A stretch of DNA of 64,000 nt from an uncultured delta proteobacterium (GTDB lineage Bacteria > Desulfobacterota > Desulfobacteria > Desulfobacterales > Desulfosarcinaceae), in NCBI GenBank assembly GCA_963705475.1, contig CAVPJS010000030.1, positions 147,684 to 211,683 of the forward strand, in the 5' to 3' direction. The notes under the pieces were generated by a model, which was not told the DNA's origin, made no database searches, and was given only the letters and a program-made list of their open reading frames with translations. A program made the translations under genes and the position numbers. Below, piece by piece: positions 7,436-59,829 of this stretch. Every line of letters begins with the position of its first letter. Positions within the stretch are counted from its first letter, which is position 1.

Positions 7436-7521
7436 GGAGGGATGGCCGAGTGGTTTAAGGCGGCGGTCTTGAAAACCGTTGAGCGAAAGCTCCGTGGGTT
7501 CGAATCCTACTCCCTCCGCCA
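7436..7521 (+). tRNA. tRNA-Ser (anticodon UGA)
   Basis: Acceptor GGAGGGA/TCCCTCC, anticodon loop CUUGAAA, long variable arm, T-loop GGTTCGAATCC, encoded CCA. Confidence 0.9.
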
Positions 7522-7541
7522 GACCCGAAAAGCTTGACCCT

Positions 7542-7634
7542 GGAGAGATGGCCGAGCCGGCTGAAGGCGCTCGCCTGCTAAGCGAGTGTGTGGTGAAAGC
7601 TGCACCGAGGGTTCGAATCCCTCTCTCTCCGCCA
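7542..7634 (+). tRNA. tRNA-Ser (anticodon GCU)
   Basis: Acceptor GGAGAGA/TCTCTCC, anticodon loop CUGCUAA, long variable arm, T-loop GGTTCGAATCC, encoded CCA. Confidence 0.9.
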
Positions 7635-36449: not shown

Positions 36450-37278
36450 TTACCAGCACTTTTCCGCTTTTGGGTAGCTCCCCAGCAGCTTGACAAACAG
36501 GGCGTGCAGGGTCAGTTCACCGATGGCCGATTTGACCTCGTCCGCGTCGATGCCCGGCTTCGAATGCCGCATAGAAAACATACTCCCATGGATTTTCCGG
36601 TATGGGCCGCGACTCCAGCTTGGTGAGGTTGAGGCTGTATTTTTGAAAAATCTTCAGACAGTCCACCAGGGCGCCGGGATAGTGGCGGGTTTTGAATGCC
36701 ACGGTGGTTTTGCCCGTTTTATGGCCAACCGGCACGTTCTCCTTGTTGGCAATGACGAAAAACCGGGTGGTGTTGGAGCTGTTGGTCTGAATGTCCCGCT
36801 CCAGGATCTCCATATCGTAAATCTCGGCGCACAGCGCCGAGGCGATGGCGGCACAGTCCAGGCGATCGCCGGCGGCCACGGCCTGGGCTGCACCGGCGGT
36901 ATCATAAGCGGGCACCATTTTAATGTTTTTCGATTTCAGGAACGCCTTGCACTGCTTGAGTGCGTGGGGGTGGGAAAGCGCCTCTTTGATCTCATCCAGG
37001 CGGGCGCCTTTTTTGGCCAGCAGGGTATGGCGGATGGGCAGATACACCTCGGCGATAACGAATATGTCATTGGCAAACAAAAGATCATAATTCTCTACCA
37101 CGGTGCCGGCGATGGAGTTTTCCACCGGAATGAATCCGTAGGTCGCCGCCCCGCTTTCCACCACATCGAACACGTCGTCGAAGGCATCGCAGCCGACAGT
37201 CTCCACCGCTTTTCCAAAATGTTCGTGGACGGCCATCTCACTGTAGGCGCCCCGGATTCCCTGAAATGCAACTTTCAT
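36450..37278 (-). pseudogene. Monofunctional prephenate dehydratase (PDT plus ACT), frame broken by one extra base in the GGG run at 36553-36555
   Basis: MKVAFQGIRGAYSEMA...ESRPIPENPWEYVFYAAFEAG, then an out-of-frame tail HRRGRGQIGHR*. The -1 frame continues as IDADEVKSAIGELTLHALFVKLLGSYPKAEKCW* (stop at 36452-36450), the expected ACT-domain end. 829 nt = 3n+1. Confidence 0.8.
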
Positions 37279-38006
37279 TGGCTGAGCCTTTCGTGTATGT
37301 CGGTCATGGCGTCGATAAACGCCTGGCGTTTTTGCTTGGCATAGGGGTTGTAGGTATGCATGTCCTCGAAAAGTTGCCATGTGTCGTGGCTGACCACCCC
37401 CAATATGTGCATGAGCCGCTTGTACCCCTCGGTGTCGATGTCCAGATCCCGGGCGCCGAAGGCCGACAGGGACCGGCCGATAAAATGGGTCAGGGAGAGG
37501 CTTACGGCAATCTTCTCGTCATGCTCCTGAGCCGAAGCCGTGATGACCACCAATCCCTGGCGCTCCAACCAGGTCCTGATTTTCTCATATCGACCACTCT
37601 CGATGCGATCCGGACAAAGGACGATTTTGCGGCCGGCCAGTGAGTTGGCCGCACTGTCCGGGCCGAACATGGGATGGGTGGGCAGGATGGAAACACTTGC
37701 CGGAAGCAGTTTGTGCATCCACTGCACCGGATAGACTTTTACCGAGCATACATCCACCACCAGGGCGTCTTCTCTGAGCAGCGGTGCCACGAGCCGCAGG
37801 GTGTCCTGCATGGCGGAAATGGGCATGCACAGGATCACGATCCCTTGACGGCAGGCCGATTCAAAGGCTACCGGCCGGGCGCCGCAGGCCCTGATGGCCT
37901 CATCCTTGTCGCTGCGGGTAAATACGGCGACGGAGAAATCTTTGGACAGGTACTGGGCGGCAAGCTTGCCGAAGCGACCGAAACCGATGATACCGATACT
38001 GCTCAT
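37275..38006 (-). CDS. tyrA: Prephenate (or arogenate) dehydrogenase
   Basis: IGIIGFGRFGKLAA NAD motif, THPMFGP, and ATGA overlap with the downstream PDT gene. Confidence 0.8.
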   Translation of the reverse strand: MSSIGIIGFGRFGKLAAQYLSKDFSVAVFTRSDKDEAIRACGARPVAFESACRQGIVILCMPISAMQDTLRLVAPLLREDALVVDVCSVKVYPVQWMHKLLPASVSILPTHPMFGPDSAANSLAGRKIVLCPDRIESGRYEKIRTWLERQGLVVITASAQEHDEKIAVSLSLTHFIGRSLSAFGARDLDIDTEGYKRLMHILGVVSHDTWQLFEDMHTYNPYAKQKRQAFIDAMTDIHERLSQ

Positions 38007-39133
38007 AGCGCCTCGCGAATTCGTTTGAAAGCCTCCAGCAACTGATCGCCTGGGGCGGCAAAACAGATGCGCACATGACCGTCCGTGCCGAAATCCTCAC
38101 CGGGTACGATGGCGACACCGGTTTTTTCCAGGATCCGGGTGGCGAACGCCCCCGACGTCTCCCCCCGCTGCAGGTGGCCGGAGATGTCCGGAAAGAGGTA
38201 AAAAGCACCCTGCGGACGGATGCAGGGGAACATGGCCGAAACCTGTTCGAAGGCCAGGTCCCGCTTGCGCTGCAGGTCGGACCGGCGCCGGACCAGCAGA
38301 CCCTCTTCCATTGCCAGGGCAGCCACGGCACCGTGCTGGGCAAAGGTGCAGACGTTACCGGTCAGATGGCTTTGGAGCCGCACCATGGCCGCCGCCACGT
38401 TTTTCGGGGCAACGGCATAACCTACGCGGAAACCGGTCATGGCATAGTGCTTGGAAAAACTGCGGGTGAGGATGAGGCGCGCTCGCACCGCTTCCAGGTC
38501 GTATAGAGAGAAATGCGGCAGGTCGTCGTATATGAAAAAATCATAGGCCTCGTCGGCAATCACAAATAGATCATGGTCGACAGCCAGGCGGGCGATCCGT
38601 TCCAGGGCCGGCCGGGGATAGACGGCGCCGGTGGGGTTATTGGGAGAATTGATCAGAATGGCCTTCGTTTTTGCGGTAACGGCGGCCGCCATGCCGTCGA
38701 GGTCCAACTGGTGGTCCTGGGTGCGCACGAAAACCGGGTCTCCGCCGGCCAGCTTCACCTGTTCGGCAAAGCTCACCCAACAGGGCACCGGAATGATGAC
38801 CTGGTCCCCGGGATCGCAGATGCACTGAAAGATGGTGTAAAGCGCCTGTTTGGACCCGTTGAAAACCACGATGTTTTCAGGATCGCAGCCATCAAACCGA
38901 TCGGCAAGGGCGGCTCTTAAGGCCATCAGACCGGCCATGTCCCCGTAGCGGGTCTCCTGGCAATCCAGGGCCCGCTTGGTGGCCTCGATCACCGGCGCCG
39001 GCGTATCGTCGGCCGGTTCGCCGATGGCCAGGCTGATCAACGGCCGCCCCTGCCGCTTCAATGCATCCAGCAGCGGAATAAACCGGGCCGTCTTGGAACC
39101 CTCGACCGTTTGAATTCGCTTAGACAGTTTCAA
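38003..39133 (-). CDS. Class I/II pyridoxal-phosphate aminotransferase (aspartate/aromatic type)
   Basis: 376 aa. LSKRIQTVEGSKT...ISLAIGEPADDTP...SFSKHYAMTGFRVGY (PLP Lys). TTG start, because TGA lies immediately upstream in frame. Confidence 0.85.
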   Translation of the reverse strand: MKLSKRIQTVEGSKTARFIPLLDALKRQGRPLISLAIGEPADDTPAPVIEATKRALDCQETRYGDMAGLMALRAALADRFDGCDPENIVVFNGSKQALYTIFQCICDPGDQVIIPVPCWVSFAEQVKLAGGDPVFVRTQDHQLDLDGMAAAVTAKTKAILINSPNNPTGAVYPRPALERIARLAVDHDLFVIADEAYDFFIYDDLPHFSLYDLEAVRARLILTRSFSKHYAMTGFRVGYAVAPKNVAAAMVRLQSHLTGNVCTFAQHGAVAALAMEEGLLVRRRSDLQRKRDLAFEQVSAMFPCIRPQGAFYLFPDISGHLQRGETSGAFATRILEKTGVAIVPGEDFGTDGHVRICFAAPGDQLLEAFKRIREAL

Positions 39134-39160
39134 TCAATAGATCTCCACTTCCCTATTGTG

Positions 39161-39194
39161 GGAATTCTAAATTTAGCTATTGTGATTTATTTGT
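39161..39194. repeat. AT-rich 34-nt motif, copy A (30/34 identical to 62757..62790)
   Basis: GGAATTCTAAATTTAGCTATTGTGATTTATTTGT versus GGAATTTTGAATTTGGCTATTGTGATTGATTTGT. Confidence 0.6.
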
Positions 39195-40297
39195 TAATTG
39201 ATTTTTGGTGGCTGTGGAATTTCTCTTGTTTTCTGCCGCAGGGCAAAATCCCCCAATACCAGCGCCGCCATGGCCTCAACAATGGGCACGGCCCTCGGAA
39301 CCACACAGGGGTCGTGGCGGCCTTTGGCCGCAAGGGTCACCGGGTTGCCGTCGAAATCCACCGTCTGCTGCGCAAGGCCGATGGTGGCAGGCGGCTTGAA
39401 CGCCACCCGAAAGAGAATCGGCTCACCGTTGGATATGCCGCCCTGAATTCCCCCGCTGTTATTGGTAACCGTCCCCAGACGTCCGTCGGCAGTTGTGAAG
39501 GGGTCGTTGTGGACCGATCCTTTGAGCCGGGTGCCGGCAAAGCCCGAGCCGATTTCAAACCCTTTGGTCGCAGGAATGGAGAGCATGGCCTGGGCCAATT
39601 TGGCCTCCAGCTTGTCGAATACCGGCTCGCCCCAGCCGGCGGGCACATGGCGGCAGACGCAGGTGACAATGCCGCCGACGCTGTCCTTGTCATCCTTGAC
39701 CCGGGCCACCAGTGCCTCCATCCGAGTGGCGGCAGCGCTGTCGGGACAACGGACCAGGTTGCCGTCAACGGCCTGACGGGTGATGGTATGCACATCCACA
39801 TCCATGGCCGAGATGTCGCTGACCGCACTGACCCAGGCGACAATTTCCACCCCGTAGGCTTCTTTGAGCATCTTTTCGGCCACCGCTCCGGCGGCCACCC
39901 GGCCGATGGTCTCCCGGGCACTGGACCGTCCGCCCCCTGAAGATGCGCGGATGCCGTATTTCATCTGGTAGGTAAAGTCCGCGTGGGAAGGCCGGGGAAT
40001 CCGGCTCATCTGGCGGTAGTCACCGGGCCGCTGATCCTTGTTGGGCACAAACAAACCGATGGGCGTCCCTAAGGTGACGCCGTTTTCCACACCGGAAAAG
40101 ATGGTCACCGGATCCGCCTCCTGACGGTCGGTGGTTAGCTTGCTCTGGCCCGGCCGACGCCGATCCAGCTGAGGCTGGATGTCGGCCTCGCCAAGCTGCA
40201 TGCCTGGCGGGCATCCATCCAGAACAGCGCCGACTCCCTTACAATGGGATTCGCCGAACGTGGAGACTTTTAAAAGCGTTCCAAACGTACTGGACAT
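39194..40297 (-). CDS. aroC: Chorismate synthase
   Basis: 367 aa. [19 protein letters not shown]...RRPGQS...[13 protein letters not shown]. Confidence 0.95.
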
Positions 40298-40362
40298 GGT
40301 GCCTGTTCCTGTTTAAGAGGTTGATTTCATGTTGAACCCAAAACCAGCGCCGTCGTCCACGG

Positions 40363-40914
40363 TCATCGGGCCGCTGGCCGGTGACCACTGGCCTCCTTCT
40401 GCAGTCCTATCGCATCTAAAATCCGTTCACATATGACGGCAACCGTTCTCCGGTCCGTAGCGATAATCCGGTCGGCCGCTTTTTCATAAAGCGGCCTTCT
40501 TTCCGCCAGCACCGCGGCGATCTCGGCAGTCAAGCCCTGACGGGTCAGCGATGGCCGGCTTTCAGATGTGGCCGAATCGCCGCGCATACGGGTCAGGATG
40601 GTCCTCTCGTCAGCGGTAAGCCAGACGATCCTGCCGGATTGCTTCATGGCGCTGACATTGCGTTCATCGAGAATGATGCCTCCACCGGTGGCCACCACCT
40701 GGCGGTGGCCGGTAGACACGGAAACCAACGCCTGTCGCTCCTGTTCCCGGAAAAACGGCCAGCCGTGGTCGGCCACCATCCGGGCGATGCTGACACCACC
40801 TGTATCGACCACCATCCGGTCGGTATCCACGAAGCGCCAGCCGAGCTGCTGCGCCAGGACTTCTCCCACGCTCGTCTTGCCCGTGCAGCGATATCCGATG
40901 AGAAACAGGTTCAT
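40363..40914 (-). CDS. aroK: Shikimate kinase
   Basis: Trimmed to MNLFLIGYRCTGKTSVG (P-loop). Confidence 0.9.
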   Translation of the reverse strand: MNLFLIGYRCTGKTSVGEVLAQQLGWRFVDTDRMVVDTGGVSIARMVADHGWPFFREQERQALVSVSTGHRQVVATGGGIILDERNVSAMKQSGRIVWLTADERTILTRMRGDSATSESRPSLTRQGLTAEIAAVLAERRPLYEKAADRIIATDRRTVAVICERILDAIGLQKEASGHRPAAR

Positions 40915-40922
40915 GGTGCGCG

Positions 40923-42185
40923 TCAGCATGCGTAAAGGGTCTCCCAGACCTCCCAGAAGTTGGGGAAGGATTTCTCCACGCAGCGCGGTTCTAAAATCCG
41001 CACGCCGGGGGCCACTAGCCCGGCCATGGCAAAACTCATGGCAATGCGGTGGTCATCGTGGGTTTCGATCGATGCGCCGTGGGGCACGCCTCCCGTCACC
41101 AAGAGACGGTCATTTTCAGCAACGGCGGCAATGCCCATCTTCTTCAATTCGGTGCAGGTGGCGTGGAGGCGGTCGCTCTCTTTGGCCTTGAGGTGAGCGA
41201 CATTTTCAATCACCGTCGTACCATCGGCAAATGCCGCTACCACCGCCAGGGTGGGCACCATATCGGGCATGTCGGCCATATCCACCGTAACGGCCCGGAG
41301 GTCGCCGCCGGTCACCGTAATGCCCGCTGATCCGCGGTCCACCCGGCAGCCCATCTGCTCTAAGACCCGGGCCAATCCGACATCCCCCTGGGTGGAATCA
41401 ACCGACACCCCGTTAACCGTGACGCTGCCGCCGGTGATGGCGGCCGCCCCCCAAAAGTATCCCGCCTGGGAGGCATCCGGCGCCACCGTATAGTCGCCGG
41501 CGCGATAGGCCTGGTCGCCACTTACATCGAAACGGGTGTATCCGTGGCGCTCAATCTGGATGCCGAACCGCTTTACAATTTCCACGGTCATGTCCACGTA
41601 CGGCCGGGACACCGGGCCGTGGGAAACCGTGATGAACATGCCCCGTGAGGTGCACGGCGCCATGAGCAGCAGGGATGAAAGAAACTGGCTGCTCACGCTG
41701 CAGTTGATGGCCACCGAACCGCCCGTCGCCTGACCGCCTGGTATCTCTACCGGCGGACAGCCATCGCCGTTCAAGGCCCGGGCACCGATGCCAAGGTCGT
41801 TCAGCGCCGTTAGAAGATGGGCAATCGGCCGATGGTACATGCGCGGGGTGCCCGTTAAGGTATAGGTCCCCTTTCCAAGGGCCGCCACACCGGCCAGCAG
41901 CCGCATGGAGGTGCCGGAGTTCCCCAGGTAAATGGGTTCCGGGCAGGCGTTGAAGGCACCATTCAAACCCTGAATTTCAATGCCGTGGTCGCGCTGTGCA
42001 ATCACCGCACCCATCTTTTCCAATGCGGCCAGGGTCAGCAGCGTATCCTGAGAGCGCAGCGGGTTGCGAACCACACAGCGCCCGTTGGAAAGCGCCGCCG
42101 CAATGAGCGTCCGGTGGGTGTAGCTCTTGGATCCTGGGACGCTCACCTGGCAATGACCGATGCGATGGGGTTTGATTTCAATCAT
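40923..42185 (-). CDS. aroA: 3-phosphoshikimate 1-carboxyvinyltransferase (EPSP synthase)
   Basis: Trimmed to MIEIKPHRIGHCQVSVPGSKSYTHR...LGNSGTSMRLL...DHRIAMSFA. Confidence 0.95.
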   Translation of the reverse strand: MIEIKPHRIGHCQVSVPGSKSYTHRTLIAAALSNGRCVVRNPLRSQDTLLTLAALEKMGAVIAQRDHGIEIQGLNGAFNACPEPIYLGNSGTSMRLLAGVAALGKGTYTLTGTPRMYHRPIAHLLTALNDLGIGARALNGDGCPPVEIPGGQATGGSVAINCSVSSQFLSSLLLMAPCTSRGMFITVSHGPVSRPYVDMTVEIVKRFGIQIERHGYTRFDVSGDQAYRAGDYTVAPDASQAGYFWGAAAITGGSVTVNGVSVDSTQGDVGLARVLEQMGCRVDRGSAGITVTGGDLRAVTVDMADMPDMVPTLAVVAAFADGTTVIENVAHLKAKESDRLHATCTELKKMGIAAVAENDRLLVTGGVPHGASIETHDDHRIAMSFAMAGLVAPGVRILEPRCVEKSFPNFWEVWETLYAC

Positions 42186-42192
42186 GACGCGC

Positions 42193-43047
42193 TTATTCCC
42201 TCTCACCGGCTCGGTTTGCCAAAACCTCGAGGACCGCTCTCTTCATTAGTTGAACCGGTGCCCGGTTACCGGTCCATCGCTCGAACTGGAAGGCGCCCTG
42301 ATGAACGAACATGGCGACGCCGTCCACCACCGTGCAGCCGGCATCCCGCGCCGCACTGAGCAGCCGGGTCTCCAGCGGATTATAGACAATATCCATCACC
42401 GTCATGCCGGGCCGCAGAGAGGCATGGGCAACCGGCATCTGATCCGGGTGCGGGACCATGCCCACAGAGGTGGCGTTGATCAGGATGTCGCAGCCGACAC
42501 CCGAAAAATCCACCAGCGGACAGAAGTCGCACTGCATTTCGCCGGCCAGGCGGCGCCCTTTGTCCTCGCTTCGGTTGACGATGGTCAGCTGTCCGCCATG
42601 TTCAACAATCCCATGCGCCAGGGCTCTGGCGGCACCACCGGCACCGATTACGGCCACCCGCCTGAGGGCAACCGGGGTTTTTTCCAGCAGGGCGGCCATG
42701 GCACCGGGACAGTCGGAATTGAAACCGCAAAGCCGACCCGCTTCGTTGACGATGGTGTTGACGGCGCCGATTCTCCGCGCCACAGGGTCTACGTGATCCA
42801 GCAGATCCATGACCGCGACCTTGTGGGGAATGGTCACACTGCAGCCGCGAATACCCAGCGCACGGATCCCGGCGACCGCTCCAGGCAGGTCCGTGACGTG
42901 CAAGGCCACGTAAACCCCGTTGTGGCCCGTCTGGCGAAAGGCCGCATTGTGCATGACCGGGCTGAGGCTGTGGCTGACAGGGTTTCCCATGACCGCGAAG
43001 AGCCGGGTGTTCGAATCGATGCACGGCACATCGGTTTTAGGAACCAT
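42193..43047 (-). CDS. aroE: Shikimate dehydrogenase
   Basis: LFAVMGNPVSHSLSPVMHNAAF...VIGAGGAARA... Confidence 0.9.
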   Translation of the reverse strand: MVPKTDVPCIDSNTRLFAVMGNPVSHSLSPVMHNAAFRQTGHNGVYVALHVTDLPGAVAGIRALGIRGCSVTIPHKVAVMDLLDHVDPVARRIGAVNTIVNEAGRLCGFNSDCPGAMAALLEKTPVALRRVAVIGAGGAARALAHGIVEHGGQLTIVNRSEDKGRRLAGEMQCDFCPLVDFSGVGCDILINATSVGMVPHPDQMPVAHASLRPGMTVMDIVYNPLETRLLSAARDAGCTVVDGVAMFVHQGAFQFERWTGNRAPVQLMKRAVLEVLANRAGERE

Positions 43048-43050
43048 GGC

Positions 43051-44163
43051 CTACACCCCGACACCAACCATGGGATAGGATCCCAGGTTTTTCAGATAGA
43101 GGGCCTGCGGCTGAATCAGCTCGATGGCCTTTTGGATGCTGCCGTCTTCGAGGTGCCCTTCCAGGTCGACGAAAAAGAAATGACTCCAACTCTCGTGTCG
43201 CGTGGGGCGGGACTCGATCTTGACCAGGTTGATGCCGGCTTCGGTGATGGGCGCCAGGGCGCCGGCCAGGGCACCGGGTACATGGGCCAGGGCGAACATC
43301 AGGGAGGTTTTGTCCCTGCCCGACGGCCGCACCCGCTCCTTCCCGATCACAAGGAAACGCGTGGGCGGACGGGAAAAATCCTCGATCTTGGAAGCCGCCG
43401 CTTCCAACCCGAAAATCGCCGCCGCACCGCCGCCGGCAATGGCTGCCACCCCCTGTTCCGCCGCCGCCCGCCCAACGGCGAAGGCGCTGGAACTGCACTC
43501 TTTCAATTCTGCGCCGGGAAGGTACTGGTTGAGCCAGATGCGGCATTGGTTCAAGGCCTGGGAGTGCGCGTAAACGACCTTGATCCCGCCCAGGCTGATC
43601 TCCTGGGCCAACAGATCATAGGAGACCTGCTGGTAGCGCTCGGCACAGATACACAGGTCCGATTCGAAAAAAAGATCCAGGGTGTGGCGCACCGAGCCCT
43701 CCACGGAATTTTCCACCGGCACCACCCCGTAGTCGCAGGCACCTTTTTCCACCTCGCTGAATATCTCCCGGATGCTGGGCTGGGGAACGTAGGTGACCGA
43801 GTAGCCGAAGTGGCTCGTGGCCGCCAGATGGGTGAACGTGGCCTCGGGGCCCAGGTAGGCCACCCGTTGGGAGGCCTGGATGGCGCGCGCGGCTGCAATG
43901 ATGTCGATGAATATGTGGTGCAGGACGTTGGGATTTAGGGGCCCCTTGTTCAGGTCGGTCAAACGCCTGAGAATTTCGCTTTCCCGTGTGCTGTCCACCA
44001 CCCGGTTGCCGCTGTTTTTTTTCAGATCCCCGATCCGCTTGGCCAGGTTGAGCCGGCGGTTGATCAACTCCAGGATGGTATCGTCGATCCTGTCGATCTG
44101 GTTACGGATATCGCAGATGTCGGCAGCCATCCTACAGTCCGGTGTGTTCTGACTTTTTTCCAT
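43051..44163 (-). CDS. pheA: Bifunctional chorismate mutase / prephenate dehydratase (P-protein)
   Basis: CM region IRNQIDRIDDTILELINRRLNLAKRIGDLK. PDT region VAYLGPEATFTH...VPVENSVEGSV. ACT region IESRPTRHESWSHFFFVDLEGH. Start assigned to the ATG at 44163. Confidence 0.9.
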   Translation of the reverse strand: MEKSQNTPDCRMAADICDIRNQIDRIDDTILELINRRLNLAKRIGDLKKNSGNRVVDSTRESEILRRLTDLNKGPLNPNVLHHIFIDIIAAARAIQASQRVAYLGPEATFTHLAATSHFGYSVTYVPQPSIREIFSEVEKGACDYGVVPVENSVEGSVRHTLDLFFESDLCICAERYQQVSYDLLAQEISLGGIKVVYAHSQALNQCRIWLNQYLPGAELKECSSSAFAVGRAAAEQGVAAIAGGGAAAIFGLEAAASKIEDFSRPPTRFLVIGKERVRPSGRDKTSLMFALAHVPGALAGALAPITEAGINLVKIESRPTRHESWSHFFFVDLEGHLEDGSIQKAIELIQPQALYLKNLGSYPMVGVGV

Positions 44164-44240
44164 GGTGTGAGCGGTCTCTTTCTTGGCTGCAGGCCTTGTC
44201 CACAAACAAAAGGCCGGGGAGATAGTCTCCACGGCCCGGA

Positions 44241-44273
44241 TAAAAAAACCGTGGGTTTCTGGTCTACCCACGG
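44241..44273 (-). terminator. Leader (attenuator) terminator upstream of pheA
   Basis: Minus strand: CCGTGGGT-agaccagaa-ACCCACGG followed by TTTTTTTA. It lies 77 nt upstream of the pheA ATG and 31 nt downstream of the leader-peptide stop. Confidence 0.7.
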
Positions 44274-44325
44274 CTTGGTTTGTCTGTTTGAAATCTCAGG
44301 ACACTCAGCGCGCAGCGGGCAGACC
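44261..44325 (-). promoter_or_regulatory. Proposed antiterminator pairing of the aromatic-operon leader
   Basis: GGUCUGCCCGC (leader codons G19-L20-P21-A22, 44325..44315) can pair with GUGGGUAGACC (44271..44261). The latter contains most of the terminator 5' arm. 11 bp including two G-U pairs. Confidence 0.5.
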
Positions 44326-44379
44326 CTCGCTAAAAAAGAAATAAAAGCAAAAAAATCTGCCATTGTAAACGCGGAGCAT
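44305..44379 (-). CDS. Phe/Tyr-rich leader peptide, 24 aa: MLRVYNGRFFCFYFFFSEGLPAAR
   Basis: ATG at 44379, 9 nt after AAAGGAA. Codons 9-16 are TTT TTT TGC TTT TAT TTC TTT TTT. TGA at 44307-44305. It lies between a sigma-70-like promoter and the terminator. Confidence 0.65.
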   Translation of the reverse strand: MLRVYNGRFFCFYFFFSEGLPAAR

Positions 44380-44413
44380 CGTGTTGATTCCTTTCAAACG
44401 CAAAAGATAGAAA

Positions 44414-44442
44414 AAAATACAAGCTTGCCTTTCCCCTGTCAA
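44414..44442 (-). promoter_or_regulatory. Sigma-70-type promoter candidate for the leader and aromatic operon
   Basis: Minus strand: TTGACA (44442-44437), 17-nt spacer, TATTTT (44419-44414). Confidence 0.5.
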
Positions 44443-44619
44443 GCTTTTTTCGGGAAAGGCGTTGCGTCTCGGAATGGCCGTCGACAGATGAGATGCGCCG
44501 TCCGACCACTAATGGCCATGGTCATGCCCGCTGTGCCATTATTTTGATATCGGCCCGTCCGATCACCTTGCGTGGGTAGGCGCGAACCTATCGCAATGGA
44601 GCGATTTTCCGAAGCCTTG

Positions 44620-46146
44620 CTATTTTTCCGTCCCGGCCGTTGGTGGAGGCAGGAACAGGCCGAAAACCAGACAAATCATTGCAGCGATCAGCGCCAACCA
44701 AAAGACGTCGACCACGCAGCTGCCGATGGCCTGGTGCAATGCCGTTTGGACGTCCGGCAGCAGTTGTTGCTGGACATCCGGGCGAAAGAAATTTTCGAAG
44801 TTCTGCCGGATCTGTTCCATCACTGCAGGCCTTATGCTTCCGTGCAACGCCGATTCATTGAGCGTGTCGGCCACCTGGGCGAATCGGGCGGTGACCAGGC
44901 TGCCGCAGATGCCGATGCCCACCGTCCCCCCGAGGGTGCGGGTGAACTGGTGGGATGACGTGGCAACGCCTAAATCGGTCTTTTGAACGCTGTTCTGGAC
45001 GACCAGCAGGGTGGCAATGGAAGTGAACCCCATGCCCACCCCGGCCAGACCCATGGCCACCGCACAGGTCCATAGGCGGGTGGCCGCCGAGAAACGCACG
45101 GCCATCACGCAGCCGACGATCAAGATGATGCCGCCGGCCAGAGAAAAGGGCTTTTCTCCCCAGCGGTTGGACCGTCGCCCGCAATAGAGGGCACCGGCCG
45201 ACCAGCCGAAGCTGAGAAACATCATGACCATACCCAGCTGAAAGGGCGACTGGCCCAGGGCCCCCTGAATAAACAGGGGGCTGAAGGCGGAAAGCGAAAA
45301 AATCGACACACTGCTGAAAAATACCAGGCCGTTGCCGGTGGAAAACCCCCTCAAGCGGAAAAAATCGAAGCAGAGGATGGGTTCGTTGCTGCGTTTTTCG
45401 GCAACGTAGAAGCATATGGCGGACACGAAGAACAGGGCGAACAGACTTAGGATCGGCAGCGATATCCAGTCGTACTCCCGTCCACCCAGCAAGAAGGCGG
45501 TTAGCAAAGAGAGAATCGCCACGACCAGGGTAATGATGCCGGCATAGTCGATCTCGATCACCTCATGCTTGTCCCGGGTTTCCTTGAGAAAAAACCAGAT
45601 GCCGACCAGGGAAAGCAGGCCGATGGGCACGTTGATGTAGAAAATCCAGCGCCAGGAGACCCAGTTGACGATAAAACCACCCAAGGACGGTCCCAGCACA
45701 CTGGCCAACCCCCAGACGAAACTGGCATAGGACATCATCCTGCCGCGGTTTTCCGGCTCGGAAATATCCGCCAGCACGATGTATACCAGGGCGAAGTTGC
45801 CGCCGGCCCCGATACCCTGAATGGCCCGGAAAGCGGTCAGCGCCATCATGCTCCGGGCCAGGCCGGCCAGCACGGATCCAACCAAAAAGATCAGAATGGA
45901 TACCAGGTAAAGGGTGCGGTTGGGAAAGAGGTCCGCCAGTTTGCCGAACACCGGCAGGGCGACCGCCCGGCTGAGCAGATAGGTCGAAAAAACCCAGCTG
46001 TAGAGGTGCAGCCCCCCCAAATCGGCAACGATGGTAGGCATGACCGCGCTCATGATCAACGTGTCCAGGGCGGCCAGAAACAAGGCCAGCAGGGTGGCCA
46101 GAATCAAGAGCAGTCGGCGATTGGGGGAAAGATGGTCGGGGGGCAT
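44620..46146 (-). CDS. MFS transporter, 14-TMS drug:H+ antiporter (DHA2/EmrB-like) type
   Basis: 508 aa. LATLLALFLAALDTLIMSAVMPTI and GKLADLFPNRTLY motifs. About 14 hydrophobic segments. Confidence 0.85.
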   Translation of the reverse strand: MPPDHLSPNRRLLLILATLLALFLAALDTLIMSAVMPTIVADLGGLHLYSWVFSTYLLSRAVALPVFGKLADLFPNRTLYLVSILIFLVGSVLAGLARSMMALTAFRAIQGIGAGGNFALVYIVLADISEPENRGRMMSYASFVWGLASVLGPSLGGFIVNWVSWRWIFYINVPIGLLSLVGIWFFLKETRDKHEVIEIDYAGIITLVVAILSLLTAFLLGGREYDWISLPILSLFALFFVSAICFYVAEKRSNEPILCFDFFRLRGFSTGNGLVFFSSVSIFSLSAFSPLFIQGALGQSPFQLGMVMMFLSFGWSAGALYCGRRSNRWGEKPFSLAGGIILIVGCVMAVRFSAATRLWTCAVAMGLAGVGMGFTSIATLLVVQNSVQKTDLGVATSSHQFTRTLGGTVGIGICGSLVTARFAQVADTLNESALHGSIRPAVMEQIRQNFENFFRPDVQQQLLPDVQTALHQAIGSCVVDVFWLALIAAMICLVFGLFLPPPTAGTEK

Positions 46147-59636: not shown

Positions 59637-59829
59637 ATCGACTCATAAAAATACCTTAAAAACATTTTTTTACATATATTTCAAATATATACTGATATTC
59701 TAAAAAAGAAACATCATTATTCAAATAATTATAATAAAAAGAAAACAAACAATAAATAAATTTTTATGTATTAAATACAGCATGTTAAAATATGACCAGA
59801 GATCGAACTCGCCTTTACGATCGGACAAA

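Follow-up and report, generated by a model that had tools for sequence, protein, structure and literature searches.

The enterobacterial pheL-pheA attenuator, reportedly described by Zurawski et al. in 1978, is a close counterpart of the element analyzed here, a candidate phenylalanine/tyrosine (Phe/Tyr) attenuator upstream of pheA on the minus strand of a 64-kb stretch (hereafter the window) of contig CAVPJS010000030.1, from an uncultured member of the Desulfosarcinaceae. As in pheL-pheA, a short open reading frame (ORF) rich in Phe codons lies upstream of pheA as the first gene, the antiterminator and the terminator are mutually exclusive, and the stop codon is placed such that a terminating ribosome would block the antiterminator. 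However, the codon run in the Desulfosarcina leader mixes Phe and Tyr, a second terminator-like hairpin is present, and the leader precedes eight genes, including pheA, tyrA and genes of the common pathway, whereas pheL precedes pheA alone. The peptide also ends in Arg-stop and not in CCC_UGA, the ending of one of two pheL groups (enterobacteria and one Shewanella) in Gurvich et al. 2011 (PMC3082878).

Attenuators closer to this lineage have been mentioned briefly. A possible pheL in Desulfobacterium autotrophicum and in Bacteroides is given one sentence in section 10 of the same paper (PMC3082878), in a passage where no sequence or structure is shown and no comparison is made; D. autotrophicum belongs to the same order (Desulfobacterales), and its putative pheL would likewise combine a Phe-codon ORF and a terminator before pheA, a comparison that extends as far as that one-line mention. 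Song et al. 2005 (PMC1173090) report a database-predicted attenuator before the aromatic supraoperon of Desulfovibrio vulgaris, which has the aroA'-aroB'-pheA order found in two of the loci below (L027 and L032); no leader peptide is described in that paper, the organism, at the time classed as a deltaproteobacterium, belongs to another order, and the likeness is by description only. Rodionov et al. 2004 (PMC545781) do not treat or describe deltaproteobacterial aromatic attenuators, and PMC4833913 contains nothing on the Desulfosarcina lineage. A preliminary description of this DNA had considered the lineage notable for such an attenuator. The mentions for D. autotrophicum and D. vulgaris detract from that view; what stands is that no description was found in the literature of the antiterminator, the helix between segments 1 and 2 (1:2), the tandem hairpins, the Phe plus Tyr specificity or the shared core, and Rfam holds no model for this leader element.

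The leader upstream of pheA

The element is very probably a ribosome-mediated leader-peptide transcription attenuator that senses Phe and Tyr and stands before the pheA operon. The basis for this reading consists of sequence elements, their conservation, alternative pairings with covariation, and the behavior of a thermodynamic model; from these we infer translation of the leader ORF, ribosome stalling, termination at the hairpin T1, and the physiological signal. In window coordinates and in approximate order of transcription, the features are:

44414..44442, minus strand: sigma-70-like promoter, with TTGACA at 44442-44437, a 17-nt spacer and TATTTT at 44419-44414
44388..44394, minus strand: Shine-Dalgarno (SD) sequence AAAGGAA, 8 nt 5' of the leader ATG
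44305..44379, minus strand: leader ORF of 24 codons plus TGA, encoding MLRVYNGRFFCFYFFFSEGLPAAR; ATG at 44379, TGA at 44307-44305
44354..44361, minus strand: segment 1, GGCAGAUU, codons 7-9, with GGCAGA at 44361-44356 (codons 7-8)
44332..44355, minus strand: regulatory codons 9-16, F F C F Y F F F (TTT TTT TGC TTT TAT TTC TTT TTT)
44305..44326, minus strand: segment 2, GGGUCUGCCC plus GCUGCGCGCUGA, from codons G-L-P to the stop; 5' strand of the antiterminator
44261..44325, minus strand: predicted antiterminator (2:3), GGUCUGCCC with GGGUAGACC, -27.0 kcal/mol
44242..44276, minus strand: terminator T1 (3:4), stem AGCCGUGGGU / ACCCACGGUU, 9-nt loop, U7
44203..44237, minus strand: terminator-like hairpin T2 (5:6), GGGCCG(U)GGAGA-CUA-UCUCC(C)CGGCCU at 44237-44211, then UUUUGUUUG; -18.0 kcal/mol
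36517..44163, minus strand: regulated operon of pheA (chorismate mutase-prephenate dehydratase, CM-PDT), aroE, aroA, aroK/L, aroC, an aminotransferase, tyrA and a second prephenate dehydratase (PDT), by NCBIfam matches

The promoter (44442-44414), the SD sequence (44394-44388), the 24-codon ORF with FFCFYFFF at codons 9-16 (44379-44305) and the terminator with its 9-nt loop and U7, 31 nt past the stop (44273-44242), had all been pointed out in the preliminary description and are present as given there. The distance from the T1 U-tract to the pheA ATG (44163) had been put at 77 nt and is 78 nt. The list had omitted the antiterminator, the pairing of segment 1 with segment 2, and T2.

The TTGACA/TATTTT site, with 10 of 12 consensus matches, is the sole promoter-like match in a scan of positions 43000-46000, and transcription would start near 44407. 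T1 is formed by CCGUGGGU, 9 nt and ACCCACGG (44273-44249), with the U7 tract at 44248-44242, and RNAfold gives it a 10-bp stem of -15.8 kcal/mol. T2 is G+C-rich and lies in the interval between T1 and pheA. A terminator scan listed neither hairpin; T1 is missing because its 9-nt loop is beyond the 8-nt loop limit of the scan, which is a limit of the tool and not evidence against the hairpins.

Across six frames of the window, FFCFYFFF is the only eight-codon stretch with at least seven Phe or Tyr codons, and 100 block shuffles of the window contained no such stretch. The only other site in the window with at least six per eight codons is FFYIYFKY, at 59665 on the plus strand. No second copy of the switch core occurs elsewhere in the window, where it is confined to the pheA leader. 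A cmscan search of positions 43900-44800 at E<=10 gave no match to the Rfam family Phe_leader, yielding three unrelated sub-threshold matches only, and none to T-box (RF00230); at gathering score, neither the full window nor 14 related loci matched a relevant Rfam family, and homology to Phe_leader or T-box was therefore rejected. The only Rfam matches in the window at gathering score are an adjacent tRNA-Ser pair at 7436-7634 on the plus strand, with anticodons TGA and GCT.

A protein-guided scan with one genome per species assigned the window to Desulfosarcina and yielded 25 Desulfosarcina loci with pheA 82-96% identical, among them those of D. alkanivorans (L001), D. widdelii (L015) and D. 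variabilis (L018). All 25 keep the SD sequence, the ATG, an in-frame Phe/Tyr (and Cys) run, the stop, T1 and T2; the parts that diverge are the 5' untranslated region, the hairpin loops, and the T1-T2 and T2-pheA spacers. A pattern search found the promoter pattern CTTGACAG...TGTAyTTT in 24 of the 25, the exception being L012. In an alignment of these loci with the window (A1, 26 sequences), the SD columns hold a purine-rich AAGGA-like block, the leader ORF is in frame throughout, and the stop occupies a single column (TGA in 25, TAA in one). The run itself has just three indels, independent and each of 3 nt (L008, L014 and L016), and its substitutions are confined to TTY, TAY and TGY. The pattern in the aligned sequences fits a translated ORF under selection on amino-acid composition rather than on sequence. 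The leaders vary at their N-terminus, and F, Y and C swap within the run.

Codon usage in the run is strongly skewed: across the 26 Desulfosarcina-type leaders, the window included, TTT occurs 107 times against 8 for TTC, and TAT 43 times against 17 for TAC. Nine neighboring genes show the opposite preference, favoring TTC and TAC. Slower wobble decoding could be the cause, or a requirement for a U-rich unstructured loop. Downstream of the F/Y run, as far as T1, nucleotide conservation exceeds what codon constraint alone would lead one to expect, which is attributed to the two alternative partners that each segment has.

Contigs recovered through pheA homologues at 57-77% identity have the same leader architecture, clearly diverged, in more distant Desulfobacterales, with the SD sequence, ATG, in-frame Phe/Tyr run, stop position and terminator all retained. 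The leaders and the genes that follow them (DHQS, dehydroquinate synthase; DAHP, 3-deoxy-D-arabino-heptulosonate 7-phosphate) are:

L027: leader MSSLTGRYFSYFWYYFFSTGLPDVH, 5' of DeoC/aroA'-DHQS/aroB'-pheA
L028: leader MRIFSGSGDYYWVYLFDGTDLPDVR, 5' of pheA, without T2
L029: leader ...CSYYYLKSRLPGMR, 5' of pheA
L030: leader MHLFSGSFYVYFSRYFYPSGLPGVH, 5' of pheA
L031: leader ...NSFYFRHYYTNTNFSAVC, 5' of pheA, without T2
L032: leader MNKFTGSFSGFYYYYFSTGLPVVR, 5' of DeoC/aroA'-DHQS/aroB'-pheA
L034 (Desulfococcus sp.): leader ...VYYFSYYFYFTARLPGVR, 5' of DAHP synthase-aroB-pheA

In all of these (L027-L032 and L034) the leader occupies the 5' end of the aromatic operon regardless of which gene comes first, and its upstream neighbors differ among relatives, glnA and asparagine synthase being examples. 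That the leader is tied to the start of the operon and not to one gene is strong comparative evidence for function. Since L028 and L031 lack T2, T1 is taken to be the core terminator. The preliminary description had proposed looking for the Phe run and the hairpin upstream of pheA orthologues; they are conserved in 25 of 25 Desulfosarcina loci as well as in these more distant relatives, and loss of the Phe-rich ORF from relatives that keep the operon was not observed.

Two of these loci differ in the make-up of the operon, which in L027 (501-2476) and L032 (995-2798) opens with a DeoC-type aroA' and a type II DHQS aroB', with the leader 5' of both. These two enzymes constitute an alternative route to dehydroquinate. 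Desulfonema ishimotonii (L033) was not counted as a family member, as its 98-nt gap holds a 12-codon F/Y mini-ORF and the terminator is absent. This mini-ORF (MYGYFYFTKLSY, L033:2950-2988) stops only ~12 nt before pheA, with no terminator in between, and could be due to chance or represent a translational-coupling variant.

Alternative pairings and ribosome position

The antiterminator joins the region just after the codon run to the terminator. GGUCUGCCC comprises the Gly-Leu-Pro codons at 44325-44317, right after the Phe/Tyr run, and its partner GGGUAGACC (44269-44261) comprises the upper part of the T1 5' arm together with the T1 loop. GCG/GCU with AGC/CGU adds to the pairing and takes in the first two bases of the UGA; an inner UGUC:GACA helix lengthens it further. 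The antiterminator emerged unprompted as the RNAalifold consensus of the 26 sequences, in which columns 86-94 pair with columns 145-153; segment 2 occupies consensus columns 86-104, with pair counts of 97-99%. GGCAGA in segment 1 is complementary to CUGCC, the same stretch that the antiterminator uses, and in the ribosome-free minimum free energy structure segment 1 (GGCAGAUU) pairs with GGUCUGCC at -15.0 kcal/mol. Most family members have GGCAG ahead of their aromatic run.

In the termination conformer (T1 plus T2), 93.5% of cells are paired, compared with 32-63% in slid controls; for the antitermination conformer (2:3 plus 4:5) the figures are 98.2% and 33-40%. T1 alone is paired in 97.7% of cells across relatives, and two of its pairs have compensatory changes. 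Because divergence within the genus is low, an anchor-based test was added, in which duplex energies of cognate and non-cognate segment pairs were compared over ~85 distinct leaders from all sources. It also replaced column counting for 1:2, since a MAFFT alignment of 51 diverse leaders (A2) placed segment 1 one codon out of register between clades. Cognate duplexes were better for 1:2, 2:3 and 3:4 (0 of 2000 permutations in each case). The 1:2 helix covaries from locus to locus, as CACAGGCAG:CUGCCUGUG in L032, UCAGGCAG:CUGCCUGA in L028, CAGGCCG:CGGCCUG in L027, CGGCAG:CUGCCG in L069 and CCGG-CAGA:UCUGCCCGG in Desulfosarcina.

The effect of ribosome position was modeled by folding the window transcript to the end of the T1 stem, with everything 5' masked through the A-site codon plus 11 nt. 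Without a ribosome, 1:2 and T1 form, with P(T1) = 0.99. Under this full 5' mask, the antiterminator has a probability of at least 0.97 with the A site at codons 4-15 and of 0.63 at codon 16; from codon 17 to the stop, T1 has a probability of at least 0.90. The switch point makes the Phe/Tyr run (codons 9-16) the last set of stall positions that still permit antitermination, and the leader UGA lies inside the antiterminator stem. By this model, the leader geometry is that of a classical attenuator. The preliminary description had suggested as much from the architecture, and the defining sequence features are indeed all present and conserved, with an antiterminator that appears to respond as required.

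If this reading is correct, the amount of charged tRNA-Phe and tRNA-Tyr available would set read-through into pheA-aroE-aroA-aroK-aroC-aat-tyrA-PDT (aat being the aminotransferase gene). Transcription from ~44407 would be followed by translation of the 24-codon leader. When Phe- or Tyr-tRNA is scarce, the ribosome would stall in FFCFYFFF, covering segment 1 (GGCAGA) and leaving segment 2 (GGUCUGCCC...GCUGA) free to pair with segment 3 (GCCGUGGGUAGACC) as the antiterminator; with segment 3 taken, the 5' arm of T1 would be unavailable and RNA polymerase would read on. With ample Phe and Tyr, translation would continue to the UGA, where the ribosome would occlude segment 2; segments 3 and 4 would then form T1, with its hairpin and U7, and RNA polymerase would stop. 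If there is no translation at all, 1:2 would pair and T1 would again form.

Sister leaders and operon context

A scan of metagenome contigs with the core pattern TCUGCC-N30-60-GCCGYGGGCAG-N3-20-CCRCGGC returned at least 120 stretches, and in at least 65 of them an aromatic-rich mini-ORF runs through UCUGCC. The core consists of segment 1 GGCAG, the codon run, segment 2 GUCUGCC, segment 3 GCCGYGGGCAG, segment 4 CCRCGGC and often segments 5 and 6, GGCCGUGG..., and no Rfam family matched the sister-leader loci. The leaders fall into three classes:

F/Y/W-mix class: for example MTQNFSGRIFWYFWYYFYNTALPVVR; core frame mostly Gly-Leu-Pro, as in the window; 5' of DAHP synthase, DeoC/aroA', aroK or pheA
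Trp-run class: for example MGKKQSTFWGWWWWNNQGGGVCP followed by the stop; core frame Val-Cys-Pro-stop; 5' of indolepyruvate:ferredoxin oxidoreductase alpha (iorA), a TrpB2-like pyridoxal phosphate enzyme or a 3-hydroxyacyl-CoA dehydrogenase
Phe-only class: for example ...GSFFAFFSFFGFFREVCP followed by the stop; core frame Val-Cys-Pro-stop or Val-Cys plus 4 codons; 5' of a Peripla_BP_6 substrate-binding protein of an ATP-binding cassette (ABC) transporter

Among the matches listed, the Trp-run loci are L040, L041, L043, L053, L087, L097, L101, L110, L126, L137, L138, L141 and L153. Their leaders, such as FWGWWWWN.KGG.VCP followed by the stop, finish in Pro-stop, and close homologues of the downstream proteins are named by NCBI as belonging to Syntrophaceae, Thermodesulfobacteriota and 'Deltaproteobacteria' metagenome-assembled genomes (MAGs). 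Phe-only loci, again among the matches listed, are L056, L059, L094, L096, L100, L104, L116, L118, L125, L135, L136, L139, L143, L149 and L150. These leaders (FFAFFSFFGFF..) usually have a strong T2, and the downstream ORF is LivJ-like (Peripla_BP_6) by scan in L056, and likewise where it has the same ~400-aa size; homologues of the L149 protein carry the NCBI names of Syntrophales and Smithellaceae MAGs. The Phe-only leaders suggest a Phe-regulated transporter.

The switch core is present in at least two Desulfobacterota classes, and its codon run corresponds to the pathway under control. Such a correspondence over a single core favors translation-dependent sensing and points to a modular family. 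The sister leaders also provide functional clues, since they suggest that indolepyruvate:ferredoxin oxidoreductase responds to Trp supply and the LivJ-like binding protein to Phe supply.

In the window, the eight ORFs downstream of the leader match NCBIfam models for chorismate mutase/prephenate dehydratase, AroE, AroA, AroK/L, AroC, an aspartate/aromatic-type aminotransferase, prephenate dehydrogenase and a second prephenate dehydratase. They are close-set or overlapping; these matches and this spacing bear out the eight-gene operon of the preliminary description. The last gene (36517-37380, minus strand), the second prephenate dehydratase, lacks a chorismate-mutase domain and, taken as the longest ORF, overlaps tyrA by ~100 nt, so that its true start probably lies further downstream. 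Genes for DAHP synthase, aroB and aroD are not present in the window operon. Upstream of the leader, on the same strand, is a gene for a major facilitator superfamily (MFS) transporter at 44620-46146.

The second hairpin, rival explanations and known systems

T2 occurs in all 26 Desulfosarcina-type leaders (including the window), in 30 of 43 other F/Y(W) leaders, in 13 of 14 Phe-type leaders and in 1 of 13 Trp-type leaders. Of the 70 leaders with T2, 62 have GCCGUGG, with at most one mismatch, in the T2 5' arm; the T1 5' arm has this same heptamer, which is hence the complement of the T1 3' arm (CCACGG). In the window and the 25 Desulfosarcina loci, 4:5 is pairable in 100% of cells, and the duplex has an energy of -13.6 kcal/mol. 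The U of GCCGUGG faces C/U within T2 but A within 4:5 in L034 and in all but one of the 26 Desulfosarcina-type sequences, which weakens T2 relative to 4:5; in L029, L030 and L032 it forms a U:A pair in T2. It may be that T2 is a back-up terminator, relieved when the freed 3' arm of T1 (CCACGG) pairs with the 5' arm of T2 (GCCGUGG), and that the leader operates as a six-segment relay (1:2, 3:4 and 5:6 versus 2:3 and 4:5). Regulation of T2 through such a relay is possible but somewhat doubtful, the alternative being that T2 is an unregulated back-up terminator. Equilibrium folding was set aside as support for the 4:5 relay, since T2 always forms.

Several results weigh against the attenuator reading or against its extension to T2. 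Covariation inside Desulfosarcina is thin, with few double-sided changes. If the mask is reduced to a 30-nt ribosome footprint, T1 returns once the A site is past codon 10, because the part of the 5' leader that the ribosome has passed becomes free again and re-pairs; a clean switch requires all RNA 5' of the ribosome to be unavailable. Applied to 94 leaders, the equilibrium stall model works for most Desulfosarcina and fails, owing to an overly stable T1, for most Trp- and Phe-type leaders, and it was not used as evidence for those two classes. In several relatives and in most of the Trp- and Phe-type sisters, T1 is favored at equilibrium despite a stalled ribosome, and control in relatives of this kind must, according to the model, be kinetic, as in textbook systems. 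In the anchor-based test, cognate 4:5 duplexes were not better than non-cognate ones over the ~85 leaders (381 of 2000 permutations). T2 has a probability of 0.97 in all modeled equilibrium states of the window, which also counts against the relay, and if T2 were efficient and unregulated it would block operon expression despite read-through at T1.

One rival reading makes T1 and T2 tandem terminators, constitutive or leaky, that only damp a strong promoter, or makes T2 the sole effective terminator, under control other than that of the leader peptide; in both versions the leader would regulate less. Such an arrangement is unlikely. It would accord with the presence of T2 in each modeled state, with a 4:5 pairing that lacks covariation support, and with the poor T1 U-tract and good T2 U-tract of some relatives (in L027, T1 is followed by UUCAUUAU and T2 by U7). 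However, GCCGUGG in 62 of 70 T2 arms across very diverged classes keeps 4:5 always available, T1 alone is sufficient where T2 is absent (L028, L031 and 12 of 13 Trp-type leaders), and the support for the 1:2, 2:3 and 3:4 switch does not depend on T2.

The translated leader itself could also be questioned. A cis-regulatory RNA not read by ribosomes, whether riboswitch-like or bound by a TRAP- or PyrR-like protein, might sense Phe/Tyr directly, in which case the ORF would be incidental and the conservation above codon constraint between the F/Y run and T1 would have a ready explanation. That conservation is, however, accounted for by the two alternative partners of each segment. The conserved SD sequence and ATG, the frame kept with 3-nt indels only, the changes in the run held within TTY/TAY/TGY, the stop codon fixed within the antiterminator stem and the absence of an Rfam match all argue against such an RNA, as does a run that codes for different amino acids before different pathways over an unchanged RNA core, and it is very unlikely. 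The mini-ORF might instead encode a functional hydrophobic micro-protein, as the peptide is indeed hydrophobic, or be a chance ORF in a U-rich spacer whose hairpin ends the transcript of the MFS gene upstream, which does lie on the same strand. There is hardly any room for either version: the F/Y run is unique in six frames of 64 kb and never seen in shuffles, the N-terminus varies and F, Y and C are interchangeable, a conserved promoter separates the MFS gene from the ORF, and the same leader stands before different first genes and beside different upstream neighbors (glnA, asparagine synthase). An attenuator read by ribosomes accordingly remains the favored explanation.

To our knowledge, very little is known of how amino-acid biosynthesis is regulated in the sulfate reducers and syntrophs of the Desulfobacterota. 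Desulfosarcina is environmentally important, since its members degrade hydrocarbons and act as partners in the anaerobic oxidation of methane. The leader offers a concrete and testable regulatory signal for its whole aromatic-pathway operon, and across hundreds of genomes and MAGs it makes small ORFs and premature terminators open to annotation. Most worth pursuing are the modular family, which may span the phylum, and the proposed relay to T2.

For the relay, a parallel exists in the his leader of Salmonella and E. coli, in which, as reportedly described by Johnston et al. in 1980, six segments pair as A:B, C:D and E:F or as B:C and D:E. There, as in the proposed relay, the position of the ribosome at the 5' end is passed along a chain of alternative helices. 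However, the terminator of the his leader is the last helix only, whereas here both 3:4 and 5:6 precede U-tracts, and the 4:5 link here differs in being without covariation support.

Leader-peptide attenuators are also said to be present in alpha- and gamma-proteobacteria, Bacteroidetes and other groups (reportedly surveyed by Vitreschak et al. in 2004). Comparative genomics has described them in Actinobacteria (Seliverstov et al. 2005, PMC1262725). The mechanism in Actinobacteria, proteobacteria and Bacteroidetes is the same, with lineage-specific independent origins, and the sequences and taxa differ from those of the Desulfosarcina leader. We know of none among those attenuators in which one RNA core is common to Trp-, Phe- and Phe/Tyr-specific leaders. 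In the Desulfobacterota, there is about an even chance that a single conserved switch core has been reused across the phylum before different operons with only the codon run re-coded, that many members drive two serial terminators by a six-segment relay, and that the family spread by duplication and re-coding. Enterobacterial attenuators originated independently at each operon, unlike the reuse proposed here; if confirmed, a core retained while its codon runs are exchanged would be a neat case of modular attenuator evolution.

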